NCBI GenBank assembly: GCA_963674825.1
Contig: OY771587.1
Location: forward strand, 1,664,001 to 1,728,000
Origin: Candidatus Cloacimonadales bacterium
GTDB lineage: Bacteria; Cloacimonadota; Cloacimonadia; Cloacimonadales; JAIOQZ01
Reading direction: 5' to 3'
DNA length: 64,000 nucleotides
Shown here: positions 1 through 20,964 of the stretch, piece by piece
Layout of the letters: each line of letters opens with the position of its first letter
Numbering within the stretch: the first letter of the stretch is position 1
Made by a program: the position numbers and the translations under genes
The notes under the pieces: generated by a model
Databases searched by the model: none
What the model was told of the DNA's origin: nothing
What the model saw: only the letters and a program-made list of their open reading frames with translations

Positions 1-2082
1 GGAGTTCCGAAGTCGTGCCGTAATCTCAAAGCGGAGATACAGATACGCACGCTGCTGCAACACACCTGGGCGGATATAATCCATGACCTGATTTACAAGA
101 CACCGATTCAGGTTCCTTCCCAATTTATCCGAGAGTCCGCGCGGTTGGCAGCGATTCTGGAAAAGGCTGATGAGTCCTTCGAGAACTTCATGAACACCCT
201 CTTGGAATACAAAAACAGTGCGCCCGAGATGTTCACGCAAAAACAGTTCGAAACCGAGAAACAAACGCTTGATTTGATTCAGTCAAGCGAGCCGGATCCG
301 AAGAAGAAAGAAGAAATTGCTATCAGGCAAGCGCGGCTTTATCGATCCACCGATCAATTTCATGAAGTAGCGACGATTCTCCGAAATCATATCGATTTCA
401 GCAAAAAACCACCGGATGAAGCGCTCTACTATCTTGCAGAAGCCCTGTTGATGCTCAAAGAGGATTCTCAATATTCTGAAGGACAATCCCAATTGAGAAG
501 GATCATCGAAGAACATCCGCTTACATCCGAAAATATTGATAATCTGCGTCTGATGAACCCTGATGATTTCAGGATTCTGACAAAAGCATGTCATCTCTTT
601 GGAATTTCATATATTGGAAAGGATCGGGATGAAGCTCTACCGTTGTTGAGAGAAGCATTCCATCTCGCTCCGGATAATCCCCGCTATGTTGTCGATTACA
701 TTGAATGCTGTCTGCTCCTTGGCGATTCGGATTGTTGTGAACTGCTCAAGCCAATGATCCTAAATGCGATTGAGCACTGTACAACCAATCTGGATATACA
801 TAAAGCCCGGATCGAGTTATATCTGTTGAAAGGTCGGTTGCTGCTCTATCTGAATCAGAAAGAAAACGCGATGGCATCGTATATGAAAGCCATTGATGTC
901 ATCCGTAAACAGAAAACATCCAAAGCGATAAGGCTGTTGATGAAGGAGAAAAAGTCACTCGAAGTCCTGCAGAAACAAACGAATGATATTCGATGGAAGT
1001 GGGCTGTCGATCTGCTGAATCTGGCATACATGATAATCCATCGAAACAAGACTGCCAGCACAAGAACTTATATCATTGCAGGGAAATCCGATTTTCTGGA
1101 AGACGAGACCAGAAAAATGCTTGTTGATTCGTTTTACCGTGGCTTTCGATGGGGAAATCCGAAAATTATCAGCGGTGGTACCAACACCGGTATTCCCGGA
1201 TGTATCGGGGATGCTGTTCTGAAAATCAAAGAGGGTAGTCGCAAATTGATCAGGTTACATGGATATATCCACGCCAATATGCCGGATCAACTCAAGCATG
1301 AGGGCTACGATGAATGGATTGTTACGGACGACGACAAATTTTCCTTCGGGGAGGTGCTGGCATATTGGAATGATCTGTTACCATACGGTGATATCAAATT
1401 GATCGGCTATGGCGGTGGGGCGATCTCTGGTTTGGAATACCGCCTGGCGTTAGCTATGGGGGCGAAAGTAGCGTTGGTTCGAGGTTCGTACGGTGCTGCC
1501 GAGGAAGTGTATCACAGCCCGGAATGGGAAAAGCACGAAGGCTTGATTGTGTTGCCTGAAGATGCGGATACAATCATAGCATTTATCAATGATCGATACG
1601 ATAATCCAATGGAAGAAAACGATTTTGAAGGCATCGCTCGTGAAATACACAATCATTATCTCGAAGAAGAAATCAAAAATGGGAAGACAGCATCGGACTC
1701 GATGGCTCCTTGGGAACTATTACCGGAAACATATAAGGCTTCCAACCGTAATCAAGCATCATTCTGGATGTTCAATCTACTATCAAACGGCTTCCAACTT
1801 CGCGGTGGGCAGCCTTCGGAAATTGTCCCGATTACCTTCACTAGGGATGAGGTCGAGCGGCTATCGAAGCTGGAGCATGGGCGATGGACGTTGAATCGAT
1901 TAAATGATGGCTGGACGTATTCACGCGAGAAGGATCCACGAAAGAAGAGAACACCCTGGTTGGCAGGCTGGAACGAATTGCCCGAAGAGATCAGGGAATA
2001 CGACAGAGAAGCGGTTCGCCGCATACCGGTGCTGCTTGCCAGCCTTGGATTTGAAATTATCAGATTAGGAGATGAAACATGA
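1..2082 (+). CDS. 5'-truncated multidomain protein: RelA/SpoT-type nucleotidyltransferase (alarmone synthetase) C-terminal part + TPR-like helices + SLOG (LSDAT/TRPM-like) + RyR-repeat domain
   Basis: Frame 1 is open from base 1 and reads ...KAEIQIRTLLQHTWADIIHDLIYK..., the RelA/SpoT EIQIRT-x2-QH-x-WA-x3-H-x3-YK motif, so the ORF-track start at 145 is internal. Later motifs: ISGGTNTG, GGGAISGLE and GSYGAAE (SLOG); REIHNHY..PWELLPE..SNR..EHGRW..GW.Y..KD..P.L..W.ELPE..REYD (RyR domain). Confidence 0.85.
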   Translation, partial: GVPKSCRNLKAEIQIRTLLQHTWADIIHDLIYKTPIQVPSQFIRESARLAAILEKADESFENFMNTLLEYKNSAPEMFTQKQFETEKQTLDLIQSSEPDPKKKEEIAIRQARLYRSTDQFHEVATILRNHIDFSKKPPDEALYYLAEALLMLKEDSQYSEGQSQLRRIIEEHPLTSENIDNLRLMNPDDFRILTKACHLFGISYIGKDRDEALPLLREAFHLAPDNPRYVVDYIECCLLLGDSDCCELLKPMILNAIEHCTTNLDIHKARIELYLLKGRLLLYLNQKENAMASYMKAIDVIRKQKTSKAIRLLMKEKKSLEVLQKQTNDIRWKWAVDLLNLAYMIIHRNKTASTRTYIIAGKSDFLEDETRKMLVDSFYRGFRWGNPKIISGGTNTGIPGCIGDAVLKIKEGSRKLIRLHGYIHANMPDQLKHEGYDEWIVTDDDKFSFGEVLAYWNDLLPYGDIKLIGYGGGAISGLEYRLALAMGAKVALVRGSYGAAEEVYHSPEWEKHEGLIVLPEDADTIIAFINDRYDNPMEENDFEGIAREIHNHYLEEEIKNGKTASDSMAPWELLPETYKASNRNQASFWMFNLLSNGFQLRGGQPSEIVPITFTRDEVERLSKLEHGRWTLNRLNDGWTYSREKDPRKKRTPWLAGWNELPEEIREYDREAVRRIPVLLASLGFEIIRLGDET

Positions 2083-2498
2083 ATAACAGACCAATCGTAG
2101 CGGTTCGGGTAATCCTGCGTAATGAAGACAACTCGATTCTCCTGCTGAAACGTGCTCAAACAAGCTATAGCGAAGGTGCGTGGTGTCTGCCGGGCGGAAA
2201 AGTTGATTACGGACAAACGCTCGAAGAAGCATGCGCCAACGAACTGAAGGAAGAAACCGGCCTGGACATCGGCGAGATCGAGTTGGTTGCCTGTCAGGAC
2301 AGTTTACCCGAGAAGGATGGGGATCCACACTTTTTGAACCTCTATTTCGAAGCGGAATACACAGGCACGATCACCTTGAACAACGAATCCTCGGCATATC
2401 AATGGGTTTCCAGCAACGAACTCGACAATTATCAAATCGTATTCGGAAACCGCGACATCATTGAGCAGATGTTCGAACAAGATACATCGGGAGATTAG
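2079..2498 (+). CDS. Nudix hydrolase family protein with a degenerate Nudix box
   Basis: WCLPGGKVDYGQTLEEACANELKEETGL; ATGA overlap with the upstream gene; AGGAGA RBS at 2067-2072. Confidence 0.9.
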   Translation: MNNRPIVAVRVILRNEDNSILLLKRAQTSYSEGAWCLPGGKVDYGQTLEEACANELKEETGLDIGEIELVACQDSLPEKDGDPHFLNLYFEAEYTGTITLNNESSAYQWVSSNELDNYQIVFGNRDIIEQMFEQDTSGD

Positions 2499-2499
2499 C

Positions 2500-5400
2500 A
2501 TGGCGGAGAATAATCGAGAAATGCGAGTTTTTATCTCATCAACATTCCGGGATATGATCAATGAGCGTGATCATCTGGTCAAGCAAGCGTTTCCGAAGCT
2601 TCGGCAACAATGCGAGGCACGAGGCGTTATCTGGGGTGAGGTTGACCTCCGCTGGGGAATAACCAGCGAGCAGCAGGCCGAAGGGAAGGTGTTGCCGATC
2701 TGCCTGGAAGAAGTCGAACGCTGCCGACCATTCTTTATTGGAATCCTGGGTGAACGCTATGGATGGGTGCCATTGGAAATCGATGAAGATTTGATCCGAA
2801 AAGAGACTTGGCTTGCGGAGCACAGAGAACGCTCGGTTACAGAACTCGAGATCCTCCACGGCGTGCTGAACCACAAGGAGATGCAGGGCAAGGCGTTCTT
2901 CTATTTTCGCGATTCTGCCTGGCTGGATTCGATCTCTGATGAAGAAAGGTATAAATACCTCGAAGGTCCTACGGATCACGAGATTGAAACTCTTGGTATA
3001 GATCGAGCGGAACAACGGGCACAGGAAAGACGGATCAAGCTTCAGGAGCTGAAGAAGAAGCTGGAGGATTCTCCCGGTACGGTTACGCGCATATTTACAT
3101 CGCCTGACGAGTTAGTGGAAATGGTCACGGAGGACATGAGTCGGATCATCGACGAGCTTTTCCCGAAAGATCAGACTGTAAATCCATTCGAGATGGAGCG
3201 TATCGCTCATCACGCGGTGTCTGTGCAGAAATCAACTGTATATGTCAAGCGTCCCCTCTATTTCGAGCAAATGTATCGATTCATTGATGGAGATGAATCC
3301 TGCCTTCTGATATCAGGAGCTTCCGGTACCGGAAAGACTTCGATGGTTGCAAACTGGACCGAAGAATATCGTCAAACCTATCCCGACGATAACGTGTTTA
3401 TCCATTTTATCGGTTCCACCCCGCTCTCGAGCGATATTGAGAATCTTCTGTGGCGATTATTGGGAGATTTGAAAGACTGGTATAACATTCCCGAAGGTAT
3501 TCCACAGAATCCTGCAGAATACGCGCAGACGCTCGCAAAATGGCTAAAGCAGATATCAGATCAACAAAGGTGCGTCATTATTCTGGATTCGCTGAATCAA
3601 CAGGAAGACAAACCCGGCGTATCGAGCCTGACATGGCTACCGGTAGAGTTTCCTTCCAACGTGCGGCTGATCGTTACGAGCCTGGAAGGACCAGCATTCA
3701 CCGAACTGCTGAAGCGGAATGCACAGCAAATGGAGATCATGCCCTTCAAAGCGGATAGCAAGAAGCTGCTGATCGATAGTTACCTGCGCTGGTGTCACAA
3801 GAGTCTGGATTCCGAATCGGTTCAGCGGCTGATTGAATCAGATCATACAGACAACCCACTATATCTAAAACTTCTGTTGGAGGAATTGCGACTCGAAGGT
3901 AAGTTCGAGTCCCTCACCGAGCAGCTTACAGAATTCCTCAAAACGGAATCGATACCCCAATTGATGCTGCTTATTCTCGATCGACTGGAGCGTGATTACA
4001 TTGGCACAGACCACAACCTGGTACGCGATGCGTTTAGCTATCTTTGGGCATCCCGAACAGGGCTTTCGGAAGTGGAGCTACTCGATCTTCTCGGAAAAGA
4101 TGGACAACCGCTTGCATCGGGTATCTGGTCGCCTCTATCCTATGCCTCACGTCATCTGATCTCGATGAACTCCGGTAGACTTGTTATAACGCACAACTAT
4201 TTCAGGCAGGCAATCGAAGAGAAATATCTGACCGATTTCGAGGAACAGCGTCGGTATCGTCTCTTGCTGGCAGACTATTTCGGCAAGACGACGGTTACCA
4301 GATGGATGATGGAAACTCCCTGGCAATACGCCAAAGCCGGAGAGTGGATGATGCTGCGCGACCTACTCCTTCAAGACAACTTCCTATTCAAGGCGTGTAA
4401 ACAGATCGAATTCGAGTACTATGCCTATTGGGTGCAGATTGAGAAAAACACCAACATAACATTTCTCGAGTCGCTTGAAAAGTACATCGAAACACCGGAG
4501 CAGTTCGAAGCTCAAACCCTCTGGCAGATCGCTGGAATCCTTCACTATAAGATGGAAACAAAGAAGAGCATTAAGCTTTGGGCTTATCTATACCATTCGA
4601 TGAAAGACAGTCCAGACCGATTCAGGTATCTAGAAACGATCTTGAATTACTCATCAACGCTGAGCAGTGGAAATTCGGAGCAAATCAAGTTCTCATTAGA
4701 ACTCATGGATGAAGGCATGGCCCTTGCGAAAGAGCTTGGATTGGAAAATCGATATTATAGCTTGCTCATGAATAAATCGCTCGTGTTTGATCGATTGGGA
4801 CGTATCGATGAAAGCATTGAAATGAAACACGAATGTGAGAAGTATTTCAGGCAAAGTGGTCACAAAGAAGGTCTGCAAGCAACTCTGGCGAATATCATGA
4901 GCGTATATTTCTGGCGGGGGGATTATGATAAGGCTATCATATACGGCAAAGAATCACGGAAACTCAGTATCGAAACAGGAAACAAGTGGGCGGTCGTGAA
5001 TCTTGATAATTCTCTTGGTACGATCATGATTTATGCTAACAAACTGGAAGAAGCCGAAGCCACTCTCAATGAAGCGCTTGAGACTGCTCGAGAAATTGGG
5101 GACGATTATCATATTCAGATGATCCAGCAAACACGTTCCATGTTATTCTGTAATCTTGAAAGGCTGGAAGAAGCGCTCGAAGCAAACCGGGAATCGAAAG
5201 AGGTATGTGAGCGGATCCAGTTTTTGCAAGGTCTTATGAGCGCGTACTGCAACGAAGGCTCAATATTATTGTCATGTGAGAGGTTTGAAGAATCTCTTCA
5301 ATCAAGCTTCAAAGCGATAGAGTATTCAGATATTGCCGATCCGGATGGCTGCCGTTGTGTGTCATTCGGAAATATCGCCGCAGCCTTCATTCGAAAGGGG

Positions 5401-5640
5401 GATCTCGACCAAGGAGAAGAAGCTCTCGCCAGGTTCAGACAACTTGCAATCGAATCACAAAAACCGGACAGTCTTGCCTGGGCGTATATGCATCTGGCAG
5501 AACTACACTTTGCCAGAAAACAGTATCAGGAAGCACTAGAGGCAATCGAAGAGGGTGTAGAACATTGTAGTCGGTATGGACTTGAATTGATCATTGATCA
5601 GAGCGAGATATTGAAGGATCAAATCATTGAAGAAATGTAA
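2500..5640 (+). CDS. DUF4062 + NACHT/AAA_16-like STAND NTPase + TPR repeats (NPHP3/TEP1-like architecture)
   Basis: N-terminal RVFISSTFRDM..VDLRWG..FIGILGERYG..SVTELEI (DUF4062); Walker A GASGTGKT; Walker B VIILDSLNQ; helical TPR-like repeats at the C-terminus. ATG at 2500 follows GGGAGA, 1 nt after the Nudix stop. Confidence 0.88.
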   Translation: MAENNREMRVFISSTFRDMINERDHLVKQAFPKLRQQCEARGVIWGEVDLRWGITSEQQAEGKVLPICLEEVERCRPFFIGILGERYGWVPLEIDEDLIRKETWLAEHRERSVTELEILHGVLNHKEMQGKAFFYFRDSAWLDSISDEERYKYLEGPTDHEIETLGIDRAEQRAQERRIKLQELKKKLEDSPGTVTRIFTSPDELVEMVTEDMSRIIDELFPKDQTVNPFEMERIAHHAVSVQKSTVYVKRPLYFEQMYRFIDGDESCLLISGASGTGKTSMVANWTEEYRQTYPDDNVFIHFIGSTPLSSDIENLLWRLLGDLKDWYNIPEGIPQNPAEYAQTLAKWLKQISDQQRCVIILDSLNQQEDKPGVSSLTWLPVEFPSNVRLIVTSLEGPAFTELLKRNAQQMEIMPFKADSKKLLIDSYLRWCHKSLDSESVQRLIESDHTDNPLYLKLLLEELRLEGKFESLTEQLTEFLKTESIPQLMLLILDRLERDYIGTDHNLVRDAFSYLWASRTGLSEVELLDLLGKDGQPLASGIWSPLSYASRHLISMNSGRLVITHNYFRQAIEEKYLTDFEEQRRYRLLLADYFGKTTVTRWMMETPWQYAKAGEWMMLRDLLLQDNFLFKACKQIEFEYYAYWVQIEKNTNITFLESLEKYIETPEQFEAQTLWQIAGILHYKMETKKSIKLWAYLYHSMKDSPDRFRYLETILNYSSTLSSGNSEQIKFSLELMDEGMALAKELGLENRYYSLLMNKSLVFDRLGRIDESIEMKHECEKYFRQSGHKEGLQATLANIMSVYFWRGDYDKAIIYGKESRKLSIETGNKWAVVNLDNSLGTIMIYANKLEEAEATLNEALETAREIGDDYHIQMIQQTRSMLFCNLERLEEALEANRESKEVCERIQFLQGLMSAYCNEGSILLSCERFEESLQSSFKAIEYSDIADPDGCRCVSFGNIAAAFIRKGDLDQGEEALARFRQLAIESQKPDSLAWAYMHLAELHFARKQYQEALEAIEEGVEHCSRYGLELIIDQSEILKDQIIEEM

Positions 5641-6024
5641 ATACAATCTACCGTGCTTGTATAGCAATTCGACATGTCAAGACAGAGACTACTGAATTGA
5701 ACCGATATGCGCAACCAGTTCCTAAGCTAAACAGATAGAGCATATTACAGAAGAGGTGAGAGCCGCCCGTCAAACAAACACCTGTGAGATCGCTAAATCG
5801 TTTTTGCAGGATGGAAAGAAGGGTGTCAACTTACAACTTCAACGCGTCGTCGTGATCCTTGAATGTTCGCTCCGGCCCCAACTCATGCTTCAGAATCCCG
5901 ATGATTCTTGCTTCGACTTTTTATTCGGAGGCTCGTATTTTCCGGGTGTAGATTGGCTACTCAAGCAAAAAAGGTGTGTTTTCCCACTCCGTTATCGTTT
6001 AAAATTCTAATTGCATCTTCATAT

Positions 6025-8025
6025 TTATTCTCCAACATGCACTTTCTTGAAATACTCACACTCCTTCAAGCCCTGAAAGATTTTATCTTCGCTGGTACTC
6101 AATTGATTTTGATAACCTTCGAGTTTATTCAGCTCAGCAATATCTTCCTGGGTTGCCTGACCCATACTCAAGCCAATCTTTCTCATTTTTTCGATGAGAT
6201 TCCTGATTCCTGAAATTGCGATCATCATGTTTCGGAATTCCTGTGCGATGTATTGACAGCCACCGATCTTCTCGATGATGAGAGATGCCTGAAACAGTTG
6301 TTCGTGTGCGATATCGAGCTCGTTGAAGCACTCCTGGGCGTAGTAGTTCAGTTCTTCCCAATTGGCGTCGTATTTATCACCTAGTCCGTCCTCTTGTATT
6401 CTGATCAGATATTTCGTCGCGGTATCTTTGTCCAGGTTGAAAAGATTCATCTGATCAATGGCACTACTGATATGGACATAAAGGGGATCGTAGGAGTTTT
6501 CATTATCTATAAGAATCGTTGGCTGGATGCCATTATTCAGCATTTTTCCATCCAGTATGGTATAAATTGCATTTGTGCCTTCATAGGCGTATATATTTCC
6601 AGAATAAGGTAAAGCGGATATCATTGTGCCCGAGAACCAGTATCCATCCACCCACTGGTATTGTATTTGTCCGAGGTTAACCGGGCCGGTTGATACTACC
6701 TCGTAAGCCTCGGAAACCTCGATTTCTTTCGGATGCAGGGGCTTGAACTCCAGACTCTTGATTGTGGATGTATCCGAATTGTAGTTCATCTCGATTATCA
6801 TGTGGTGCTTCTTATCGGTTACTCCCTCCGGCATCGAGACGCAAGTGTATTTGGTAGTCGATCGAACGTATTCGGGACCGAATTTCTTTTCGATTTCATC
6901 GTAGCTCATTTGTTTATCCAACCCGTACATGGTTAATTCGGATTCCCGATCGATCCTTAACAGGATCGAACAGATGACTCTGTCGTAGTCGGTCGTCTGG
7001 ATAACAATTTTACTCCCGGGCGCTACTGCGAACACGCCGTCTTTTTTGAAGCCGTATTTCTCCCGAAGTACCGTCCAATCCTCGTTCGAGTAGTCCTTTT
7101 TTCCAAACATCTCGATCATGTTCTTTGTTTTGTTTTCAGATAAATATTGCTCCCAGATATCGGGATGGGACTCTGCTGGCTCAGGGTTGTCGATGTATTT
7201 CACACTGCGGAGTTCGGTTTCAATGTCCTGATTCGAAGTTTTAGCTATGTGCTCATACGGATCAACGTATGTCTCCCCGGTCGTGCTCTGTTCAGCGGCA
7301 ACGAGGTTCATGATCGATTGACGTTCTTCGCTGGGCAACATCTGCAGGAAATCCTCTGCATCCTCCTGCCAGATGTTAGGCGGTGATTTGATGTAATCAC
7401 CCACGATCGTCACTTCGTCCACGATGAAATCACCCGATAAACTGTAACTGTATCGCAAGCTTACAGTTGCATCCCGTCTGTTGCCCTTTGGATAATAGAC
7501 GATTTTTGCTCCGTTTGGGTTTCCTTCCGACGCAGTGTCCTCGATATCCCATACGGTATTAGCTACAAAATGATTTCCTTCCTGAATCGCTTTTCCATAA
7601 GCATCCCAATCGAAGTTCTCCCAATCGATGTTTTTATCGTCCATACCATGATCGCTCGCTGAATCGTTATAGCCAGCCGTTGCGAGGAAATCCTTGTACC
7701 TGATCGGCAGACCGTAGAAAGCCAGCAATTCGCCGAATAAATTCTCGGATTCTTCGTCCTTTTTGCAGGTGAAAATAATCTCCTGGAGTCCTCTTGCCAG
7801 CGACATCGTAACACTGATTTCGATGTTATCATAGTATTTGTGGATGGTCGTATCCCCATTGAGTTCTTCGTATTGAACGCCCAATCTGAGGGCATAGTAG
7901 ATCACGAGCGGGTCATCGGCGGGTTTTCCGATGACGAGGTGAATAAGGGGTGAAGACGGGATGAAACCGAGCGCCGGGATAGATAACGAGAGAAATGCGA
8001 TGGCTGCTGTCAGAATGTATCTCAT
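6025..8025 (-). CDS. Hypothetical secreted protein (666 aa)
   Basis: Long ORF with signal peptide MRYILTAAIAFLSLSIPALG and a GAGGA RBS; no recognisable domain. Confidence 0.75.
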   Translation of the reverse strand: MRYILTAAIAFLSLSIPALGFIPSSPLIHLVIGKPADDPLVIYYALRLGVQYEELNGDTTIHKYYDNIEISVTMSLARGLQEIIFTCKKDEESENLFGELLAFYGLPIRYKDFLATAGYNDSASDHGMDDKNIDWENFDWDAYGKAIQEGNHFVANTVWDIEDTASEGNPNGAKIVYYPKGNRRDATVSLRYSYSLSGDFIVDEVTIVGDYIKSPPNIWQEDAEDFLQMLPSEERQSIMNLVAAEQSTTGETYVDPYEHIAKTSNQDIETELRSVKYIDNPEPAESHPDIWEQYLSENKTKNMIEMFGKKDYSNEDWTVLREKYGFKKDGVFAVAPGSKIVIQTTDYDRVICSILLRIDRESELTMYGLDKQMSYDEIEKKFGPEYVRSTTKYTCVSMPEGVTDKKHHMIIEMNYNSDTSTIKSLEFKPLHPKEIEVSEAYEVVSTGPVNLGQIQYQWVDGYWFSGTMISALPYSGNIYAYEGTNAIYTILDGKMLNNGIQPTILIDNENSYDPLYVHISSAIDQMNLFNLDKDTATKYLIRIQEDGLGDKYDANWEELNYYAQECFNELDIAHEQLFQASLIIEKIGGCQYIAQEFRNMMIAISGIRNLIEKMRKIGLSMGQATQEDIAELNKLEGYQNQLSTSEDKIFQGLKECEYFKKVHVGE

Positions 8026-10793: not shown

Positions 10794-11148
10794 GCTAAAT
10801 GAATCTTGTTGTTTCGTCTCTGCGGATCCATGCTTTGTTGGTAATGCAAAGCAAGCAGCGTCAAATCATTAATGATCAGAAGATAGAAACGCTTTTTACA
10901 GAGTTGAAAGTTCACATAAGTCCGCAAGCAGAAGCGACAGTAAACATCCTTGTTTAGCGTCCTCTCTATCATATAATAACAATCCCTCTTCCAAGTTGAT
11001 AATGACGGTCGTTTCCCATGATTCTATTCTGATTATACGGCAAATACTTACACATCCCAAATTAGTCTGAGTTCTACATGGATTCTTGATCATATCGGAA
11101 CGAAATATGCATATTTTGGTAGGTAACTACTTCATAAGGGGTTCTGCG

Positions 11149-14100
11149 ATGAAAAAGTCCATGTTGTCAGTGTTTCTGTTATTTATATTTCTTACATTCC
11201 TTGAAGCAGCTCCTGTTCTACAGAGCGACGCAGATATCGTTGCGGAGAACTGGAGCAAGCACTGGAGCGAATTGCGCAACAGTGAAATAAACGTTCGATC
11301 TTCAGAAACTATTGGGACACAACTATATCTGTATCACTTGGATCCAGCCGGATTCCTTTTGATTTCAGCTGATGATAACCTTGAGCCGATTCTGGCTTAC
11401 GATTTTACAACCACTGCCTCTGAGACAAAGCCAGACAACTTTTTAAGCTGGCTGGATGTGTATCAGGAAGAGTGCGACTATGTTCGAAGCCATGAAATCG
11501 ATGACACGCGTTGTAATCAACTCTGGTCTGAACTGTTGACAGACGACCTCTCCCGCTACCAGAACACTCGCAATGTATCCCCGATGATTTGGTCGCAATG
11601 GGGCGAAGGCGACGATTGGAATGATGCCTGTCCCGATGATCCGGATGGCCCTGGCGGAAATGCTTATGCCGGTAGCCATGCTGTCGCCATGGCAATGTTA
11701 ATGAAATACTGGAATCATCCTGCGCAGGGTGAAGGACAAAATAGCTATTATCTTCCTGAATACGGTGCTGTCGAAGCAGTATTTGATACGACCCACTACG
11801 GCTGGACGCATATGCCGAACTCATTTAGCACCAACTGGACAGAAAACTTGATCTTCCACTGCGGTGTTGCGACATTTATGGACTACAGTCCAACATCTTC
11901 AACCACATCGATTAACGCGGTAGCTCAGGCGATGGTCGATCACTTCCGTTACAGCTCAGAAATGGATCTCCTGGCCAGGTCGGACTACGACGAAACAGTT
12001 TGGGAAGGAATGGTGCGAACCGAGCTGGAAAATGGAAGACCGCTGCTCTACCAGGGCGAAGGCACAGCCTTGCACGCCCACTTGCTGGATGGCTATCAGA
12101 ATACCGATTTCTTCCATTTCAACTGGGGTAACGAAGGGCAGTACAACGGCTACTTCCAGTTGAGCGCTATTACGCCATCTACGGCCAACTATACCTCGAA
12201 TCAGAAAGCCTTGTTCAATGTGCAGCCCAGTCTTGGGCCAGATACAATCGACGAGAGCTTCGAAAATGACTGGAATACATTTAACTGGGAATTCGCCGGG
12301 CAATCGGAATGGCAAATCGCAACAGACGAACACTTTTATGGCATCAAATCAGCTAAATCCGGTGATATCAACCACAACCAGACATCAGAGATTTTCCAAT
12401 CCTGGAATGTATTGGAAGATGGTCCCATCACGTTCTGGTGCAGGGTCTCCAGTGAAGACAACGGTAATAACGATTATGATCGACTGGAATTTTGGATCGA
12501 CGGAGTCGAAGCAGATCGATGGGGCGGCGAGCGTGACTGGGAGCAAATGTCGTACGACATCACTGCCGGCGTACATGAGTTCCGCTGGATATACCGAAAA
12601 GACGGTAGCCTTGTCTCTGGGCAGGACTGCGCGTGGATTGATGCGATCGACTTCCCGGATGGCGCTACGCCGTTGAACGCACCTCAGAACTTCACAGCAA
12701 GCATCGTGAATGATGACTCCGTTCTCATGACGTGGGAAGCACCGCTTATCCGCAACCTTCTCGGCTATCGCATCTTCAGGAATAATGTCGAGATAACGAC
12801 AATCCTGAATCCGAATACCCTTCAATTCATCGACCTCAACCTGCCCAACGGATCGTATTCGTACTACGCCAGAGCAGTTTATGATTCCGGCGTGTCTGAT
12901 CCTACGATCACCCATGTCATCAACATCGAGGTACTCTATCCACCCACAGCTCTCGTGGCATCGGTGTCGAATTTCGACGATGTGCTGCTTGCCTGGAACA
13001 TGCCAGCAACGCAGCAGGCACGGCGAACGCCTATTAATACCCGTAGCCTGATGGGCTATCGCATTTACCGCGACAACACCCTGATTGATTCTGTAAACAG
13101 CCAGACAACTTTACAGTACGCCGATAATGATCTGCCTGAAGGAACACACGAATATCAGGTATCGGCAATCTATTCATCCGGTTATTCAGAGCTGTCCAAC
13201 GTCGCCGTAGCAGCCATCGGCGTTCCCTGGCCACCCTCAGAGCTGACGGCGCAGGTACAGAATTTCAACGAAGTTTTCCTGGATTGGACAGCGCCTCCGC
13301 AGACATCGGAAACGCTTACAGGTTACAAGATTTATCGTGGTCTGGACCTTGTGCATGAAATGACGGACATCACCAGCACCAGCTACACCGAACTCGATCT
13401 GCCTAATGGTACTCATGTGTATCATGTTACTGCAATCTATGGAGAAGTTGAGTCTGGTCCATCGAACACAGCAGTGGCCACGATTGAAGTACCCTATCCT
13501 CCCCAAAACCTTATTGCAGATGTCGCAGAAGACGACGTGACGCTGGATTGGGATGCCCCAGCCACTGGATCGCGCAATCTCACTGCCTATTACGTCTATC
13601 GAAATAACAGCCCGATCGCCACGATCTGGAATACGAATGTGACATCATATTTCGACCCGATGCTGGCGAATGGATTCTACGCATATAAGGTCATAGCCGT
13701 TTACGGTGATGTATATTCGGAACCTTCGAACATCGTGAATATTGAAATGGATATACCATATCCGCCATCCAACCTATCAGCACAGATTGAGAACTTGAAC
13801 GATATCGTCCTGAACTGGGATCAACCGCCTGTTCAGGGGGGATTGCGCTCGTTTCTCGGATATCACGTCGTGCGTAACGGTGAAAATCATGCACTGGTTA
13901 CGGATTTCAACCAGTTGACCTGGACCGACGAGAATGTTGACAACGGTGTCTACGAATACTTCGTTTACGCTGAATATAACGCCGGGAATTCGGAATCCAC
14001 CAACGATGTCGAAGTTACGGTGGAAGTGCTGTACCCGCCGCAGAATCCCTCTTATACAATCGATGATGACGACGTCGTTCTCACCTGGGACTTGCCGGCT

Positions 14101-17100
14101 ACCGGCGGTGGCCTCACTCGTGACCTGCTGGGCTACACCATCTACCGTGATGATATCTTGATCCAGACAATCAACGATCCTGCCGTTCTTACCTGGACGG
14201 ATTTGAATCTTGCCAACGCTACCTACACGTATTACCTGCAAGCAACGTACACCTCCGGTGTCTCAGCTCCAACCGATAACCTTGATGTTATGGTTGAAGT
14301 GTTCTATCCAGCTTCAAACCTTGTTGGAGAGATTATCAATGAGGACGATGTTGCGCTGACATGGTCTCCTGCATTGAACTCCGGCGGTCTTCGCATGTTG
14401 CAGGGCTATCGCGTGTTCCGGAATGATATCGCGATAACCGATGTCACCCCCGCAGACACGACATGGCTTGATTCTACGCTTCCCAATGGCGATTACATCT
14501 ACTACGTGAAAGCACTTTACGAAAATGGGCTTTCAGCTGAAACTAATCACGTACCGATTCACATCGAAGTGATGTATCCAGCACGACAACTCACCGCCTC
14601 TGTAACAGGTGATGATGTCAACCTGGCCTGGCTTGAGCCACTCACATCGGGCGGTCTTTCAAGAGACCTGCTCGGATACAGGATCTACCGGGATTCAGAT
14701 GAGATCGCGGTTATCAACGATCCGGCTCAAGTAGCGTTCATGGATATGAACCTGGACAACGGATCTTACAGTTACACGGTAAGAGCGGAATATGCTGTTG
14801 GCTTGTCTGAACCTTCCAACACAGCGCTCGCATCTATCGAGGTGCTGTATCCGCCCACAAACCTCACTGCTATTGTTACAAACGATACAGTCAGCTTAAA
14901 CTGGAATATACCGGACAATGGTCCCACGCGTAACTTGCTGGGCTACACGATCATCCGGAACGGAAGCGTATTGCTGCAAATAGCAGATCCCGCGACCGTT
15001 GGTTACGAGGATACTGGTCTGGCGAACGGCGAATACTCCTACGAGGTTGTTGCCGATTACTCAACAGGGCAATCTGCGTCTGAGGGGCCTGTAACAGCAA
15101 CTGTTGAGGTTCTGTACGCTCCCAGAAACCTTGGCTGTTCACTCGAAAATTACTACAATGCCGTGCTTACTTGGGATCCTCCGCTCAATCAGGGGGGGCT
15201 GACTAGAGTGATGAATGGCTACCAAGTGTTCAGGGATAGTGTCCTCATCGCCGATGTAACGGATGTGAACTATACCGATAACGCCCTGCCTGACGGCTCG
15301 TATGATTATACGGTGAAAGCCGTTTACACATCAGGCGTGTCGCAGGCCTCCAATACCGTCAATGCTATCATCGAATACCCCTACGCTCCAAGCGGATTGA
15401 GTGCGGCGGTCAGTCAGGACACTGTTTCCCTGGTCTGGACAGCGCCCAGCAGCAATACAGTCTTGGGGTACACCATTTACCGTGATGGAGTTTCAATTGC
15501 CGATATCAACGACTCGGCTATCCTGAATTTCAATGACACAGGCCTTGCTAATGGTAGTTATTCCTACTACGTGATTGCCCGGTACAACGTTGATGATTCA
15601 GTTCCCTCAAACACAGTCACCGCTACGGTCGAGGTGCTTTATCCGCCGCAGAATCTTGAAGCATCCGTCATGCAGGACGAAGTGACACTTTCGTGGGAGC
15701 TTCCTGCCGTGCAGGGTGGACTGACCCGTGATCTGCTGGGCTACAAGGTCTATCGCGATGGTAATCTGATAGAGGAAATAACCGGATCCCTGACATACAC
15801 GGATATTGATCTCGCAAACGGCGCTTATGACTACGAAGTGAGTGCTGTTTATACAACCGGTGAATCGCAGATGTCTAACCTCGTTACCGCTACGGTTGAG
15901 GTGCTTTATCCACCGCAGAATCTTACATATGCGGTCACTCAGGATGAAGTAACACTCACATGGCAGCTTCCGGCCGTGCAGGGCGGCTTGACCCGCGATC
16001 TGCTGGGCTACAAGGTCTATCGTGACGGTGTTCTGATTGAAGAGGTAAGCGGATCCCTGACATACACGGATATCGACCTCGCAAACGGCGCATACGACTA
16101 CGAAGTGAGTGCTGTTTATACAACCGGCGAATCGCAGATGTCCAATCTCGTCACCGCTACGGTCGAGGTGCTTTATCCACCGCAGAATCTTGAAGCATCC
16201 GTCATGCAGGACGAAGTAACACTCACATGGCAGCTTCCGGCCGTGCAGGGCGGCTTGACCCGTGATCTGCTGGGTTACAAGGTCTATCGTGACGGTGTTT
16301 TGATTGAGGAGATAACCGGAGTCCTGACGTACACAGACGTTAATCTAGCCAACGGCGCATACGACTACGAAGTGAGTGCTGTTTATACAACCGGTGAATC
16401 GCAGATGTCTAACCTCGTTACCGCTACGGTTGAGGTGCTTTATCCGCCGCAGAATCTTGTTGCAGAAGTTGCTCAAGATGAAGTGACACTCTCATGGCAG
16501 CTTCCTGCTGTGCAGGGTGGACTGACCCGCGATCTGCTGGGTTACAAGGTCTATCGCGATGGTGTGGAAATCACCGAAACCAACGATCTCAACTATCTCG
16601 ATATCGACCTCGCCAACGGCGTATACGACTACGAAGTGAGTGCTGTTTATACAACCGGTGAATCGCAGATGTCCAATCTTGTTACAGCAACCGTTGAAGT
16701 GCTTTATCCGCCGCAGAATCTTGAAGCATCCGTCATGCAAGATGAAGTAACACTCACATGGCAACTTCCTGCTGTGCAGGGTGGATTGACCCGCGATCTG
16801 CTGGGTTACAAGGTCTATCGTGACGGTGTAGAAATCAACGAAACCAACGATCTCAACTATCTAGATATCGATCTCGCCAATGGCGCATATGACTACGAAG
16901 TGAGTGCTGTTTATACAACCGGTGAATCGCAGATGTCCAATCTTGTTACAGCAACCGTTGAAGTGCTTTATCCACCGCAGAATCTTGAAGCATCCGTCAT
17001 GCAAGATGAAGTGACACTAACATGGCAGCTTCCTGCTGTGCAGGGCGGACTGACCCGCGATCTGCTGGGCTACAAGGTCTATCGTGACGGTGTTTTGATT

Positions 17101-20100
17101 GAAGAAATAACCGGATCCCTGACATACACAGATATCGACCTCGCAAACGGCGCTTACGACTACGAAGTGAGTGCTGTTTATACAACCGGTGAATCGCAGA
17201 TGTCCAACCTCGTCACTGCTACGGTCGAGGTGCTTTATCCGCCGCAGAATCTTGTTGCAGAAGTCACACAGGATGAAGTGACACTCTCATGGCAGCTTCC
17301 TGCTGTGCAGGGTGGACTGACCCGTGATCTGCTGGGCTACAAGGTCTATCGTGACGGTGTAGAAATCAACGAAACCAACGATCTCAACTATCTAGATATC
17401 GATCTTGCCAACGGCGCATATGACTACGAAGTGAGTGCGCTCTATACAAACGGTGAATCGCAGATGTCTAACCTCGTTACCGCTACGGTTGAAGTGCTTT
17501 ATCCACCTCAGAATCTTGTTGCAGAAGTCGCTCAAGATGAAGTGACACTTACGTGGCAGCTTCCTGCCGTACAGGGCGGACTGACCCGTGATCTGCTGGG
17601 TTACAAGGTCTATCGTAACGGGATTCTGGTTGAAGAATTAATTGGAGTCCTGACGTACATAGACGTTAATCTAGCCAATGGCGCATACGACTACGAAGTG
17701 AGTGCTGTTTATACAACCGGTGAATCGCAGATGTCCAACCTCGTTACCGCTACGGTTGAGGTGCTTTACCCGCCGCGCAACCTTTCGGCAGTGGTTTCCA
17801 ATGAGGTTAACGCCATCCTGAGTTGGGACGCTCCGCTTACCAGCGGCCGTTCACTCAACGGGTATCTCGTATTCCGCAATGGATCGCTGGTTGCGACAAT
17901 CGGTTCTCCGGCACAGCTGACATGGACAGATTACAGCCTGCAGAATGGCGGATACGATTATTCGATTCAGGCATTCTACACCACTGGGATTTCTCCTGCT
18001 AGCAACATCGCGCATGTGGACATCGACTACAACCCGGTGCTGGATGCGCCATCCAATTTGAACGCGACCGTAGTCAACGGCAACGATGTCGAACTGAGCT
18101 GGACCGGACCAGAATCAACACAGATCGGCTATAAGATCTATCGTGACGGCGCAGAAATAGCGGAATTGACCGATCCAACAACCGTCAGCTTCACCGATAT
18201 CGGACTTCCGAACGGCGTGTATGTATACGCTGTCACAGCGATTTATTCCGAAGGTGAGTCATCGCCATCCAACACGGCAGTCGCGGATATTCTGATAACC
18301 TCACCGCCGCAGGAACTTGTAGCGCAGATCCAGAACGATAACGAAGCTGCCCTTAGCTGGAACCCGCCGGTTAATTCAGGATACACCGGCTATGTGGTTT
18401 ATCGCAACAATGTTGTTATCGCGGTGTTGGAAGCAAATACGGAAAATTACACCGACACCGGGCTTGCCAACGGTGACTACGATTACTACGTGAAAGCGCA
18501 GTTCAATACCAACCTCTCCATCGCCTCCAACACGGCTTCCGTCAATGTGGAGATTCTGTATCCACCTACGGATCTGACGGCAGATGTAGTAAATAGCAAC
18601 GATGTAACGCTTACCTGGGCGGCTCCGGTGACAGGCCGTAGTCTCCTTGGTTACAATATCTATCGTGACGGTGTTCTGATTGACGAAGTGACCGGAGCTC
18701 TGACATACACGGACATCAACCTCGCTAACGGCGCATACGACTACGAAGTGAGTGCGCTTTATACATCCGGCGAATCGCAGATGTCCAACCTCGTTACCGC
18801 TTCAATCGAAGTGCTGTATCCGCCGCAGAATCTTGAAGCATCGGTGATGCAGGACGAAGTGACGCTCACCTGGCAGCTTCCTGCCGTACAGGGTGGACTG
18901 ACCCGTGCTTTCCTGGGCTACAACGTCTACCGCGACGGTGCAGAAATAGCCAATATCAACGATCCGGCAACGCTCACCTATCTCGACATCGATCTTGCCA
19001 ATGGCGCATACGACTACGAAGTGAGTGTGCTTTACACGACTGGCGAATCGCAGATGTCCAACCTCGTTACCGCTACGGTCGAGGTGCTTTATCCACCGCA
19101 GAATCTTACATATGCGGTTATGCAAGACGAAGTAACACTTTCGTGGGAGCTTCCAGCCGTACAGGGCGGGTTGACCCGTGCTTTCCTGGGCTACAAAGTC
19201 TACCGCGACGGTGCAGAAATAGCCAATATCAACGACCCGGCAACGCTCACCTATCTCGACATCGATCTTGCCAATGGCGCATACGACTACGAAGTGAGTG
19301 CGCTCTACACAACCGGCGAATCGCAGATGTCTAATCTTGTTACAGCAACCGTTGAAGTGCTTTATCCGCCGACCGGGCTCACGGCCACTGTGACAATTGA
19401 TGATGTGCTCCTCAACTGGAACATCCCACAGACGCAGCGCAGAAACCGCAGCCTGACCGGCTACCAGCTATACCGAAATGGATCGATGATTGCAACGATA
19501 GACAATCCGGCAATTACGACATATACCGAGACAGACTTGGTGAACGGAAGCTACACATACGAAGTTATGGCGACCTATTCCTCAGGCAATTCTCCGCTGT
19601 CTGAGCCTGCTGTTGCCGTTATCGCCGTCGTGACGCCTCCCGAGAATCCGGCGTTCACGATCTTGAACGGAAATGATGTAGATATAACATGGGAATTGCC
19701 AATCAACCAGACCACGCCAAACTCCTATACGATTTACCGTGATGGCGCGGACGTCCATACCACGGAAAACGGAACCGTACTTACATGGACTGACACAGAC
19801 CTCGAGAATGGCGACTACAACTACTGGCTTACAGCTACGTATGATGCCGGCGAATCGATCGCAACCGAGACAATGCTGGTGCAGATCGCAGTGATGAATC
19901 CTCCCACTGGGCTTTCGGCCGATGTGACGCTGGATATGGTGGAGCTTACGTGGATTGAACCCGCAAACGCTAGCGGATTACTGGGATTCATTGTCTATCG
20001 CGATAGCGTTGAGATTGCCCAGATCAATGCTCCCGATGTCTTCGTTTACGATGACTTCGATCTGGCAGCGGGTGACTACCAGTACTTCGTCACGGCGAAT

Positions 20101-20964
20101 TATACCGTCGGCGAATCGGAACCTTCGAACACGATTGACGCAACGATTCTGCTTCCACCGCCGGGTAACGTCCTGGCTACGCCAGACAGCAGTGATGTTG
20201 TGGTGAGTTGGGATACGCCAGCGATGCGAAGCCTCGTTGGATTCCGCATTTATCGTGACGGAGCTGAGATCGTAACACTCGACAATCCAGCTCTGGTTGA
20301 ATACACTGATGCGAACCTGCCCAACGGCGACTATTCCTACACGGTTCAGTCCTTGTTCACATCTGATGTATCAGATCAAAGCACACCTGCAGAGTGTACG
20401 GTGGAAGTGCTCTGGGCTCCTGAAAATCTCGAGGCGGAACTCGGCGACAATGTATCGGTCAGCCTTACGTGGGATGCACATCCCATGGGTGTTACCATGA
20501 CAGCGTACAAGGTGTACCGTAATGATGTAGAGATAGCCCAGATTGACGACCCGGAAGTAACACACTATGATGATCTCGAGTTGGCTCCCGGGTACTATAC
20601 GTACACCGTAACGGCTCTTTACAACAGCGGAGAATCCGATCCTTCCAATGAAGTCGATATCGAAATCTACGCCACTGGTGACGAGCCTATTCCTCCAATG
20701 ACGACACAGCTCATTGGAAATGCGCCGAACCCGTTCAATCCGAGCACGACCATCATGTTCAGTGTCGCCAGTGATAGCGCTGTGAACTTGAGTGTGTTCA
20801 ACGTACGTGGGCAGAAGGTTGCCACTCTGGTGAACAACGAGGTTCTGTCTGCCGGTGAGCATCGTGTTGTTTGGAACGCCGGCAATGCTGGCAGCGGCGT
20901 GTATTTCGTACGCATGAGTACTCAGAAGAGCCAGTTCATCCACAAGATGTTGCTGGTTAAGTAG
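11149..20964 (+). CDS. Giant secreted protein: C10 (streptopain-like) prodomain + peptidase-like domain, adhesin/MAM-like domain, ~30 FN3-like repeats, C-terminal FlgD-Ig/Por-secretion-type tail
   Basis: Signal peptide MKKSMLSVF..; GFLLISADD..PILAY (C10 prodomain); GSHAVAMA.LMKYW, HAHLLDGY and FHFNWG (C10 core); repeated P-x2-L..W..P..GY.VYR.G..Y.D..L.NG.Y.Y.V.A.Y..GES; NAPNPFNPSTTI..FNVRGQKV..SGVYFVRM tail. Start chosen at ATG 11149 after AAGGGG. Confidence 0.9.
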   Translation: MKKSMLSVFLLFIFLTFLEAAPVLQSDADIVAENWSKHWSELRNSEINVRSSETIGTQLYLYHLDPAGFLLISADDNLEPILAYDFTTTASETKPDNFLSWLDVYQEECDYVRSHEIDDTRCNQLWSELLTDDLSRYQNTRNVSPMIWSQWGEGDDWNDACPDDPDGPGGNAYAGSHAVAMAMLMKYWNHPAQGEGQNSYYLPEYGAVEAVFDTTHYGWTHMPNSFSTNWTENLIFHCGVATFMDYSPTSSTTSINAVAQAMVDHFRYSSEMDLLARSDYDETVWEGMVRTELENGRPLLYQGEGTALHAHLLDGYQNTDFFHFNWGNEGQYNGYFQLSAITPSTANYTSNQKALFNVQPSLGPDTIDESFENDWNTFNWEFAGQSEWQIATDEHFYGIKSAKSGDINHNQTSEIFQSWNVLEDGPITFWCRVSSEDNGNNDYDRLEFWIDGVEADRWGGERDWEQMSYDITAGVHEFRWIYRKDGSLVSGQDCAWIDAIDFPDGATPLNAPQNFTASIVNDDSVLMTWEAPLIRNLLGYRIFRNNVEITTILNPNTLQFIDLNLPNGSYSYYARAVYDSGVSDPTITHVINIEVLYPPTALVASVSNFDDVLLAWNMPATQQARRTPINTRSLMGYRIYRDNTLIDSVNSQTTLQYADNDLPEGTHEYQVSAIYSSGYSELSNVAVAAIGVPWPPSELTAQVQNFNEVFLDWTAPPQTSETLTGYKIYRGLDLVHEMTDITSTSYTELDLPNGTHVYHVTAIYGEVESGPSNTAVATIEVPYPPQNLIADVAEDDVTLDWDAPATGSRNLTAYYVYRNNSPIATIWNTNVTSYFDPMLANGFYAYKVIAVYGDVYSEPSNIVNIEMDIPYPPSNLSAQIENLNDIVLNWDQPPVQGGLRSFLGYHVVRNGENHALVTDFNQLTWTDENVDNGVYEYFVYAEYNAGNSESTNDVEVTVEVLYPPQNPSYTIDDDDVVLTWDLPATGGGLTRDLLGYTIYRDDILIQTINDPAVLTWTDLNLANATYTYYLQATYTSGVSAPTDNLDVMVEVFYPASNLVGEIINEDDVALTWSPALNSGGLRMLQGYRVFRNDIAITDVTPADTTWLDSTLPNGDYIYYVKALYENGLSAETNHVPIHIEVMYPARQLTASVTGDDVNLAWLEPLTSGGLSRDLLGYRIYRDSDEIAVINDPAQVAFMDMNLDNGSYSYTVRAEYAVGLSEPSNTALASIEVLYPPTNLTAIVTNDTVSLNWNIPDNGPTRNLLGYTIIRNGSVLLQIADPATVGYEDTGLANGEYSYEVVADYSTGQSASEGPVTATVEVLYAPRNLGCSLENYYNAVLTWDPPLNQGGLTRVMNGYQVFRDSVLIADVTDVNYTDNALPDGSYDYTVKAVYTSGVSQASNTVNAIIEYPYAPSGLSAAVSQDTVSLVWTAPSSNTVLGYTIYRDGVSIADINDSAILNFNDTGLANGSYSYYVIARYNVDDSVPSNTVTATVEVLYPPQNLEASVMQDEVTLSWELPAVQGGLTRDLLGYKVYRDGNLIEEITGSLTYTDIDLANGAYDYEVSAVYTTGESQMSNLVTATVEVLYPPQNLTYAVTQDEVTLTWQLPAVQGGLTRDLLGYKVYRDGVLIEEVSGSLTYTDIDLANGAYDYEVSAVYTTGESQMSNLVTATVEVLYPPQNLEASVMQDEVTLTWQLPAVQGGLTRDLLGYKVYRDGVLIEEITGVLTYTDVNLANGAYDYEVSAVYTTGESQMSNLVTATVEVLYPPQNLVAEVAQDEVTLSWQLPAVQGGLTRDLLGYKVYRDGVEITETNDLNYLDIDLANGVYDYEVSAVYTTGESQMSNLVTATVEVLYPPQNLEASVMQDEVTLTWQLPAVQGGLTRDLLGYKVYRDGVEINETNDLNYLDIDLANGAYDYEVSAVYTTGESQMSNLVTATVEVLYPPQNLEASVMQDEVTLTWQLPAVQGGLTRDLLGYKVYRDGVLIEEITGSLTYTDIDLANGAYDYEVSAVYTTGESQMSNLVTATVEVLYPPQNLVAEVTQDEVTLSWQLPAVQGGLTRDLLGYKVYRDGVEINETNDLNYLDIDLANGAYDYEVSALYTNGESQMSNLVTATVEVLYPPQNLVAEVAQDEVTLTWQLPAVQGGLTRDLLGYKVYRNGILVEELIGVLTYIDVNLANGAYDYEVSAVYTTGESQMSNLVTATVEVLYPPRNLSAVVSNEVNAILSWDAPLTSGRSLNGYLVFRNGSLVATIGSPAQLTWTDYSLQNGGYDYSIQAFYTTGISPASNIAHVDIDYNPVLDAPSNLNATVVNGNDVELSWTGPESTQIGYKIYRDGAEIAELTDPTTVSFTDIGLPNGVYVYAVTAIYSEGESSPSNTAVADILITSPPQELVAQIQNDNEAALSWNPPVNSGYTGYVVYRNNVVIAVLEANTENYTDTGLANGDYDYYVKAQFNTNLSIASNTASVNVEILYPPTDLTADVVNSNDVTLTWAAPVTGRSLLGYNIYRDGVLIDEVTGALTYTDINLANGAYDYEVSALYTSGESQMSNLVTASIEVLYPPQNLEASVMQDEVTLTWQLPAVQGGLTRAFLGYNVYRDGAEIANINDPATLTYLDIDLANGAYDYEVSVLYTTGESQMSNLVTATVEVLYPPQNLTYAVMQDEVTLSWELPAVQGGLTRAFLGYKVYRDGAEIANINDPATLTYLDIDLANGAYDYEVSALYTTGESQMSNLVTATVEVLYPPTGLTATVTIDDVLLNWNIPQTQRRNRSLTGYQLYRNGSMIATIDNPAITTYTETDLVNGSYTYEVMATYSSGNSPLSEPAVAVIAVVTPPENPAFTILNGNDVDITWELPINQTTPNSYTIYRDGADVHTTENGTVLTWTDTDLENGDYNYWLTATYDAGESIATETMLVQIAVMNPPTGLSADVTLDMVELTWIEPANASGLLGFIVYRDSVEIAQINAPDVFVYDDFDLAAGDYQYFVTANYTVGESEPSNTIDATILLPPPGNVLATPDSSDVVVSWDTPAMRSLVGFRIYRDGAEIVTLDNPALVEYTDANLPNGDYSYTVQSLFTSDVSDQSTPAECTVEVLWAPENLEAELGDNVSVSLTWDAHPMGVTMTAYKVYRNDVEIAQIDDPEVTHYDDLELAPGYYTYTVTALYNSGESDPSNEVDIEIYATGDEPIPPMTTQLIGNAPNPFNPSTTIMFSVASDSAVNLSVFNVRGQKVATLVNNEVLSAGEHRVVWNAGNAGSGVYFVRMSTQKSQFIHKMLLVK
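15634..17760 (+). repeat. Eight near-identical tandem units of 264/267 bp encoding FN3 modules
   Basis: GTGCTTTA unit starts at 15634, 15901, 16168, 16435, 16699, 16963, 17230, 17494 and 17761. Confidence 0.95.
18811..19356 (+). repeat. Two further related 273-bp FN3 units (second sub-array)
   Basis: Unit starts at 18811, 19084 and 19357; they share PAVQGGLTR and GESQMSNLVTAT with the main array. Confidence 0.9.

Follow-up and report, generated by a model that had tools for sequence, protein, structure and literature searches.

The first 5,640 nucleotides of a 64,000-nucleotide window from a Candidatus Cloacimonadales bacterium (GenBank assembly GCA_963674825.1, contig OY771587.1, positions 1,664,001 to 1,728,000) carry most of a three-gene unit that may encode a Thoeris-like relay, probably directed against invaders. 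In this reading, to which we assign a probability of roughly 45%, a DUF4062-NACHT-TPR protein of the STAND type would act as an NADase and make a nucleotide signal, SLOG and ryanodine receptor (RyR) domains would receive it, an alarmone synthetase would be the effector, and a Nudix hydrolase would provide the reset. The strongest support comes from a recurrent domain grammar, in which a tandem RyR pair with conserved pocket residues caps three unrelated proteins as well as a STAND protein, repeatedly near TIR-like NADases. The pair is the best candidate for the receptor and ties DUF4062-NACHT proteins to several different effectors. An earlier note made from the letters of the window alone had proposed a related interpretation, which holds up in part. 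Its domain assignments hold, the synthetase is intact and the three genes do co-occur, but the tandem RyR pair had no role in its mechanism.

All three genes lie on the forward strand, as an open frame at window positions 1-2082 (gene 1), a Nudix gene at 2079-2498 (gene 2) and an ATG-initiated open reading frame (ORF) at 2500-5640 (gene 3). They are as tightly coupled as first described: genes 1 and 2 overlap in an ATGA at 2079-2082, and the Nudix stop codon (TAG, 2496-2498) is followed by a 1-nt gap before gene 3. Gene 1 had been thought mis-started by the ORF track, and the synthetase motif is indeed in frame at the start of the window; the true ATG, however, lies outside it, at window position -416 (contig position 1663584; L001:11584). 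The full-length gene encodes 832 aa, of which residues 140-832 fall in the window (genome frame, Pfam, AlphaFold2 (AF2) model and VIA fold search). A broken or partial gene is ruled out by the intact frame and motifs, and so is a housekeeping Rel, because a separate 746-aa frame carries that match. The source genome (3.89 Mb in one contig) has its sole RyR match and its sole DUF4062 match in this unit along with one of its four Nudix matches, and the grouping of the three genes therefore goes beyond chance. A profile search found no TIR or DUF4062 elsewhere in this genome, and TIR_2 was absent too. The GC content of the unit is 46.0% versus 49.6% for the genome, and a promoter scan upstream of it was near chance (3 found versus a shuffled mean of 1.2).

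Gene 1 begins with an alarmone synthetase whose catalytic motifs are complete. Pfam places RelA_SpoT at residues 48-173 (E = 4e-16), and the C-terminal part of the domain opens the window at 1-210 (residues 140-209; PF04607 and VIA), with EIQIRT at nt 34-51, then H167, Y171 and K172; the whole motif EIQIRT...IYK is in frame at nt 34-99. Missing upstream motifs would have counted against the earlier interpretation, but extension of the contig in the 5' direction recovers all of them: R49/K51, D76-x-x-G79-x-R81, G121-Y122-x-x-x-H126 and E151-x-Q153-x-R155-T156. In an alignment of 78 of 121 sequences (the query and 120 listed matches, at about 30-40% identity), R49, K51, K59, D76, R81, Y122, H126, E151 and Q153 are invariant in 78/78, as are H160, Y171 and K172. 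The AF2 model built from this alignment has a predicted local distance difference test score (pLDDT) of 91.8 and resolves into four parts, namely synthetase, TPR, SLOG and RyR pair. By VIA, the synthetase fold is closest to RelQ (5DEC, Z = 17.4) and RelP (Z = 16.9), followed by CapRel (Z = 12.9) and Tas1 (Z = 12.8). Complete SYNTH motifs with no N-terminal HD domain identify a small alarmone synthetase (SAS). The TPR superhelix that follows (about residues 213-487, at 220-1044; Pfam, AF2 model and VIA) gives the SAS-TPR order, although not the two-domain size of about 410 aa. The invariance of Y122 in the G-loop is compatible with (p)ppGpp synthesis. Where the earlier note allowed (pp)pGpp, (pp)pApp or pyrophosphorylated tRNA as the product, (p)ppGpp now appears likelier than tRNA modification, because the fold is nearer to RelQ and RelP than to CapRel or Tas1.

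The putative sensor domains follow. Pfam makes no SLOG call on the gene 1 query, and phmmer found no match to this region in the PDB; the fold of residues 490-672 (1051-1599) was assigned from the AF2 model by VIA and by alignment as a TRPM-type SLOG domain, with matches to TM1055 (Z = 18.9) and TRPM2 (Z = 16.8) and to Thoeris ThsA (Z = 14.0 for SeThsA, 7UXT; Z = 13.4 for BcThsA-3'cADPR, 7UXS). Many gene 1 homologues carry PF18171 in Pfam, which we take to be LSDAT_prok. The SLOG motifs SGGT..G.PG and GxxGG..S..EY are conserved, and E618 is kept in 77/78 sequences. The tandem RyR pair (1615-2064) resembles RyR Repeat12, with a Pfam match to PF02026 at residues 757-825 (E = 1.5e-13) and a phmmer match to Repeat12 of RyR3 (E = 9e-16). 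Its first repeat has H689 (77/78), Y692, W710 and N721, and its second has H765 (78/78), W768 (72/78, otherwise F or Y), T790 and D807 (76/78). The +3/+42 spacing of H765, W768 and D807 equals that of H75, W78 and D117 in the phage protein RyDEP, an equivalence drawn from spacing and from alignment to RyR repeats. According to the literature, RyDEP cleaves 2'/3'cADPR (cyclic ADP-ribose) via H75 and D117 while W78 and H100 bind the ligand (PMC13232231), animal RyR Repeat12 binds adenine nucleotides (PMC12627627), and TRPM2 is gated by ADP-ribose (ADPR; PMC13143021).

RyR repeats of the same H/W/D type are found on two other kinds of protein in the synthetase-family loci: RCK channel proteins (H in 17/17, D in 13/17) and P-loop proteins (H and D each in 12/12). 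Their genes occur in 22/79 and 17/79 loci, respectively. The RCK-RyR proteins (L029:2668-4464, L047:2588-4396 and others) have a hydrophobic, channel-like N-terminus, a TrkA_N/RCK region and mostly a C-terminal RyR pair in which H/W/D are conserved, and they are candidate nucleotide-gated ion channels. The P-loop-RyR proteins (L003:3752-6337, L037:10578-13166 and others) are about 860 aa long and consist of an N-terminal domain, whose start is presumably PfkB-like, a P-loop ATPase and the RyR pair, and 9/12 retain a second His of the RyDEP type. Tandem RyR pairs may be host-side receptors for ADP-ribose-type messengers made by NIR or TIR domains, in a widespread bacterial and archaeal network with exchangeable effectors (synthetase, RCK channel, P-loop protein), a tentative proposal that we hold at somewhat less than even odds.

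The candidate signal maker is gene 3, a 1046-aa DUF4062(NIR)-NACHT-TPR STAND protein of NPHP3/TEP1-like type, identified by Pfam and alignment. Pfam calls DUF4062 at residues 9-118 (E = 3e-14), a NACHT/NPHP3-like domain and TPR_12. The putative catalytic residue E117 (nt 2848-2850), K279 in the Walker A motif (residues 273-280, nt 3316-3339) and D363 in Walker B are invariant in 11/11 aligned sequences, and 25/28 neighbouring DUF4062 ORFs have S-x-T-x-x-E where it would be expected. An N-terminal DUF4062 with its Glu, STAND Walker A and B motifs and C-terminal repeats together make up the NIR-NLR architecture. A single-sequence AF2 model of the DUF4062 region, run with no alignment, reached a pLDDT of 35.5. 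DUF4062/NIR domains hydrolyse NAD+ to ADPR (10.64898/2026.05.01.722283; 10.64898/2026.09.04.749371), and this NADase activity is also found in an Avs2 protein (10.64898/2026.09.04.749371). Assignment of gene 3 to Avs1-5 was rejected, as PADLOC gave only weak mad8 and TPR matches (E up to 0.01).

Gene 2 is a MutT/RppH-like Nudix hydrolase of 139 aa (Pfam NUDIX, E = 1e-24). Its Nudix box is slightly degenerate, with Q for the first E and NE for RE, and the ELKEE glutamates are kept. A Nudix gene adjoins or is fused to the synthetase in 33/79 loci (16 downstream, 14 upstream and 3 fused), and these partners form several groups by position. An HD hydrolase adjoins the synthetase in 9/79 loci; the single HD partner searched matches 7P1Y (E = 4e-36), MESH1 and small alarmone hydrolase (SAH) structures. 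Nudix and HD hydrolase genes at any position (40/79 and 11/79 loci) never occur in one locus. The Nudix protein had been proposed to reset or buffer the nucleotide signal. An HD alarmone hydrolase replaces it in one main clade, an exchange which suggests that the compound removed is the alarmone and not ADP-ribose. A Thermus Nudix protein is known to degrade ppGpp (PMC3153485).

Gene 1 belongs to a widespread family whose loci frequently contain TIR or DUF4062 genes. A protein search returned 158 matches; among those listed, 120/120 combine RelA_SpoT with RyR, and 4 of them have a Nudix fusion. A relative is encoded in at least 574 of 600 listed stretches of GTDB genomes that matched the family pattern, some of which may be synthetase-only. 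The neighbourhood set comprises the best 80 of these at least 574 loci, drawn from many bacterial phyla and several archaea, and became 79 when L073, with no intact synthetase ORF, was dropped. One of its loci, L002, is a near relative with 83% identity, found in a Cloacimonadales genome, and is not independent. Within about 8 kb, DUF4062 is present in 25/79 loci, DUF4062-NACHT in 18/79, TIR in 30/79, and either DUF4062 or TIR in 47/79, or in 35/49 of the loci whose flanks each reach 5 kb or more. These neighbours were counted with hidden Markov models (HMMs) built from Pfam-verified neighbours of the same loci. Among 80 viral loci with a synthetase only, none carries Nudix, HD, DUF4062, TIR, the RCK channel or the P-loop protein; being viral, with a mean length of 9.7 kb versus 15 kb for the test loci, they are not a matched control. 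When the test set is restricted to 6 kb, TIR or DUF4062 is still present in 45/79 loci.

The linkage is also found in the opposite direction. A metagenome scan with gene 3 as a single protein gave no match. An 11-row DUF4062-NACHT alignment, consisting of gene 3 and STAND proteins near synthetase or RyR genes and so biased towards them, recovered 78 metagenome loci. RyR is present in 29/78 of these, and in 19/40 of those of at least 10 kb; a full synthetase occurs in 4/78, the P-loop protein in 11/78 and RCK in 7/78. The RyR carrier is the synthetase, the RCK channel, the P-loop protein or the STAND protein itself. In L207:4467-8462, a DUF4062-NACHT-TPR protein that shares 35% identity with gene 3 across aa 6-1036 is fused to a tandem RyR pair, and the fusion gene faces an RCK-RyR gene. 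L198 has all three genes side by side in the same order, and L184 and L255 have them with Nudix first; they are also contiguous in L259, where the synthetase part was not found. Gene 1 identities in these metagenome trios are about 29-32%. Among 232 genomes of the phylum, a gene 3-type STAND protein occurs in 11, RyR in 10 and both in 7, three of which are kin. RyR is thus found in 7/11 genomes with this STAND type versus 3/221 without it, and the two lie close together on the same contig in 6 genomes.

With the anatomy, intact motifs, folds, two-way gene linkage and mobility of the unit established, we infer all of its biochemical steps as follows. The TPR region of the STAND protein would bind a trigger and the NACHT domain would oligomerise, by analogy with Avs and NLR biology. 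DUF4062/NIR could then cleave NAD+ to ADP-ribose or a related product, an activity of other DUF4062 proteins whose catalytic Glu is kept here. The product may bind the tandem RyR pair of gene 1, its SLOG domain or both, since both folds bind ADPR-type ligands elsewhere and key residues are conserved. Ligand binding would lift a TPR-mediated autoinhibition of the RelP/RelQ-like synthetase, comparable to the brake that the TPR domain exerts in Tde-SAS (PMC10434055), and the resulting (p)ppGpp or (p)ppApp would stall growth. The Nudix enzyme would clear basal alarmone and reset the system.

A number of observations weigh against this relay. The expectation that homologues of the three genes co-localise was borne out, but the full trio is a minority arrangement, present in just 6/79 loci, one of them the near relative; it is one arrangement of a modular network and not a fixed operon. 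Neither TIR nor DUF4062 is found in 32/79 loci (14/49 with long flanks), and detection of TIR, DUF4062 and partner genes was favoured in the test loci because the HMMs were built from them. In the reverse search 49/78 loci had no RyR, many of the contigs being short. No hydrolase gene adjoins the synthetase in 38/79 loci. FastTree gene trees place the HD partners mostly in one Bacteroidota-rich clade that is largely one lineage, so the exclusivity of Nudix and HD is statistically overstated and the swap may represent few events. The second, phosphate-binding His of RyDEP (H100) corresponds to T790 in gene 1 and is His in only 12/78 homologues. In published NIR systems, NAD+ depletion is itself the mode of action and no effector lies downstream (10.64898/2026.05.01.722283; 10.64898/2026.09.04.749371). 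The synthetase-family loci are not classical defence islands: of 290 other neighbours, 214 were scanned with PADLOC (1e-8) and 26 matched, nearly all to generic domains and including two full-length PDC-S01 and one partial PglZ, and the 214 included no restriction-modification, CBASS cyclase or comparable core gene. Full-length gene 1 was also absent from the phage, plasmid and IMG/VR collections searched.

The unit could instead be two independent modules that cluster, one an Avs/NLR-like NIR NADase killing by NAD+ depletion alone and the other a synthetase-hydrolase pair that senses a different nucleotide. An Avs2 of the NIR-STAND-TPR type defends alone (10.64898/2026.09.04.749371), and gene 3 could do the same because published NIR systems need no downstream effector. 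Each part is often found without the other, and the synthetase is linked more tightly to Nudix (33/79) than to the STAND protein (12/79 have a same-strand DUF4062 no more than 1 kb away). We nevertheless consider such independence rather unlikely, as the RyR-DUF4062 link is specific, with other defence genes not enriched, and a RyR-STAND fusion exists in L207. In genome G118, genes 1 and 3 are adjacent at another site with no Nudix, an arrangement that counts against a fixed trio but keeps precisely the synthetase and STAND genes together.

Gene 1 might instead serve damping and recovery and not be the executioner. The NADase product would be cleared by the RyR pair, as a RyDEP-like glycosidase or a sponge, and by the Nudix, as an ADPR pyrophosphatase, and a mild pulse of (p)ppGpp would bring about dormancy or general stress tolerance that need not be phage-related. 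The catalytic pair of RyDEP is conserved by spacing (H765/D807), the characterised SAS-TPR protein Tde-SAS is non-toxic in E. coli (PMC10434055), and the loci lie outside defence islands. Yet six of eight RyDEP homologues bind without cleaving (PMC13232231), the 139-aa MutT/RppH-like Nudix is exchanged for an alarmone-type HD hydrolase, and the presence of this RyR pair on ion channels suits gating, all of which makes damping a distinctly unlikely function. It is also quite improbable that RyR pairs are homotypic adaptors gathering effectors on the STAND protein by protein contact with no diffusible signal. Several RyR-bearing genes do often share one locus, and coupling through effector-associated domains, which such adaptors would resemble, has been described for conflict systems of large genomes (Kaur et al., PMC7159879), but the source genome has a single RyR match and the invariant residues are those of the ligand pocket.

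Like type I Thoeris (ThsB TIR plus ThsA SIR2-SLOG), the proposed relay pairs a TIR-like NADase with a SLOG-bearing effector; here, however, the signal maker would be an NLR-like DUF4062-NACHT-TPR protein, an alarmone synthetase takes the place of SIR2 as the effector, and an RyR pair and a hydrolase are added. Membership in type I Thoeris was rejected, there being no SIR2 or ThsB match in the three proteins and no PADLOC Thoeris match. Gene 3 shares an N-terminal DUF4062 with its conserved Glu on a STAND-TPR protein with the NIR systems (PsAvs2, Swarozyc, Vulcan, Vesta and Evangelion, and human TEP1, NWD1/2 and NPHP3), but in the bacterial systems NIR itself is described as the executioner. 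The available text of three NIR preprints (10.64898/2026.05.01.722283, 10.64898/2026.09.04.749371 and 10.64898/2026.06.25.731849) does not mention RyR, SLOG or Nudix. RyDEP and animal Repeat12 have the same PF02026 repeats with HxxW and D pocket residues. RyDEP is a stand-alone phage gene, whereas here tandem repeats are fused to a host enzyme and the second His is Thr; the available part of PMC13232231 describes no host-side receptor role for RyR.

Among synthetases, Tde-SAS (DsRel) likewise places TPRs after the synthetase, RelP and RelQ are the best structural matches, and a partner hydrolase is present in many loci; unlike Tde-SAS, gene 1 is twice as long, has added SLOG and RyR domains, and is mobile and NADase-linked. 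The toxSAS-antitoxin pairs and CapRel are similar in that a mobile element carries an accessory synthetase with a hydrolase next to it (Nudix or SAH), but CapRel and Tas1 are the poorer structural matches. CapRel has a fused pseudo-zinc-finger antitoxin domain, and gene 1 was rejected as a CapRel because its C-terminal region is TPR-SLOG-RyR with no such domain. The TRPM2 chanzyme also combines a TRPM-type SLOG domain with Nudix, but there is no TRP channel here and the gene 2 Nudix is MutT-like rather than NUDT9-like. On the three proteins PADLOC gave partial single-domain matches only (PDC-S33, PDC-S07, mad8 and TPR). The earlier note had not recognised the combination as a named system; its domain calls were recovered, by Pfam for all except SLOG. 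The system is apparently undescribed, as a variant of NADase second-messenger signalling. Our literature search found no description of a synthetase-SLOG-RyR family, although Burroughs et al. 2015 (SLOG/LSDAT) and its supplements, outside that search, may list the architecture.

If the relay is real, the RyR pair would be a new receptor and the alarmone synthetase a new effector class in TIR-type immune signalling, directly linking NAD+-derived immune signals to alarmone synthesis. Nucleotide gating through Repeat12 of ryanodine receptors and through SLOG domains of the TRPM2 type would then have a precedent in prokaryotes, and the cADPR-binding RyR domain, which serves phages as a sponge or glycosidase, would gain a host-side setting. 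The unit also offers a small soluble model for whether animal RyR Repeat12 senses ADPR-type nucleotides, and testable functions for NPHP3/TEP1-like prokaryotic NLRs.

The unit is horizontally mobile. Full-length gene 1 occurs in 4/232 phylum genomes, and the unit was not found in 2/3 genomes of the same genus. Genome G117 carries all three genes, while G115, G116 and G119 (98% complete) have no gene 1 match and only TPR-level matches to gene 3. Two tRNA-Val genes lie upstream, and inverted Mu-like ends bracket the unit, with a TGT at window position -853 (L001:11147), 61 nt past the second tRNA-Val gene, and a right end at 5696-5835, the inverted counterpart of the left, that terminates in ACA at 5835. 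Divergence between the source genome and G117 begins right after this ACA. In G115 the same ends flank a prophage (about 35 kb) that lies at this tRNA site and has matches to Mu-type transposase, CI repressor, portal and terminase; in G116 the ends are arranged head to tail. A target-site duplication around the element was looked for and not found.

The TGT...ACA ends recur at the tRNA-Val site (L100:13879, L101:8027-8066, L098:4881 and 15379, L099:6663; G000:C1:3314848 and 1837672, G000 being the source genome). They appear nested in their own end sequences and bracket cargo free of phage genes, namely the unit here and, in G116, host-type genes spanning about 10 kb, which suggests site-preferring mini-elements. 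A Macro-TIR fusion (L098:3035-4036) lies beside the Mu-like prophage repressor in G116.

Other genes were seen in the synthetase-family loci. One 74-kb contig (G184:C38; L095, L096) has six DUF4062 matches, TIR proteins, a P-loop-RyR gene and a synthetase gene. A ClpB-like double-AAA gene lies near the synthetase in Actinomycetota and Gemmatimonadota (L045, L051, L052, L057, L062, L073, L076), accompanied by a YbjN-like gene in 4 loci, and genes adjoining the synthetase at L011:6141-7790 and L027:5833-6972 have weak SLATT_1 matches.

Beyond the right end, a 70-bp segment at window 5836-5905 is present in 8 copies at 84% identity in G115. It is followed by an ORF of 666 aa on the reverse strand (6025-8025) that has a signal-peptide-like start, no Pfam, NCBIfam or PADLOC match, and a 94% DNA match on another contig of G117. 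Further downstream, a 3292-aa protein on the forward strand (11086-20964) has a peptidase-like N-terminus, presumably C10-like, followed by many FN3-like repeats that are nearly identical to one another, and it ends in a sorting-type domain.

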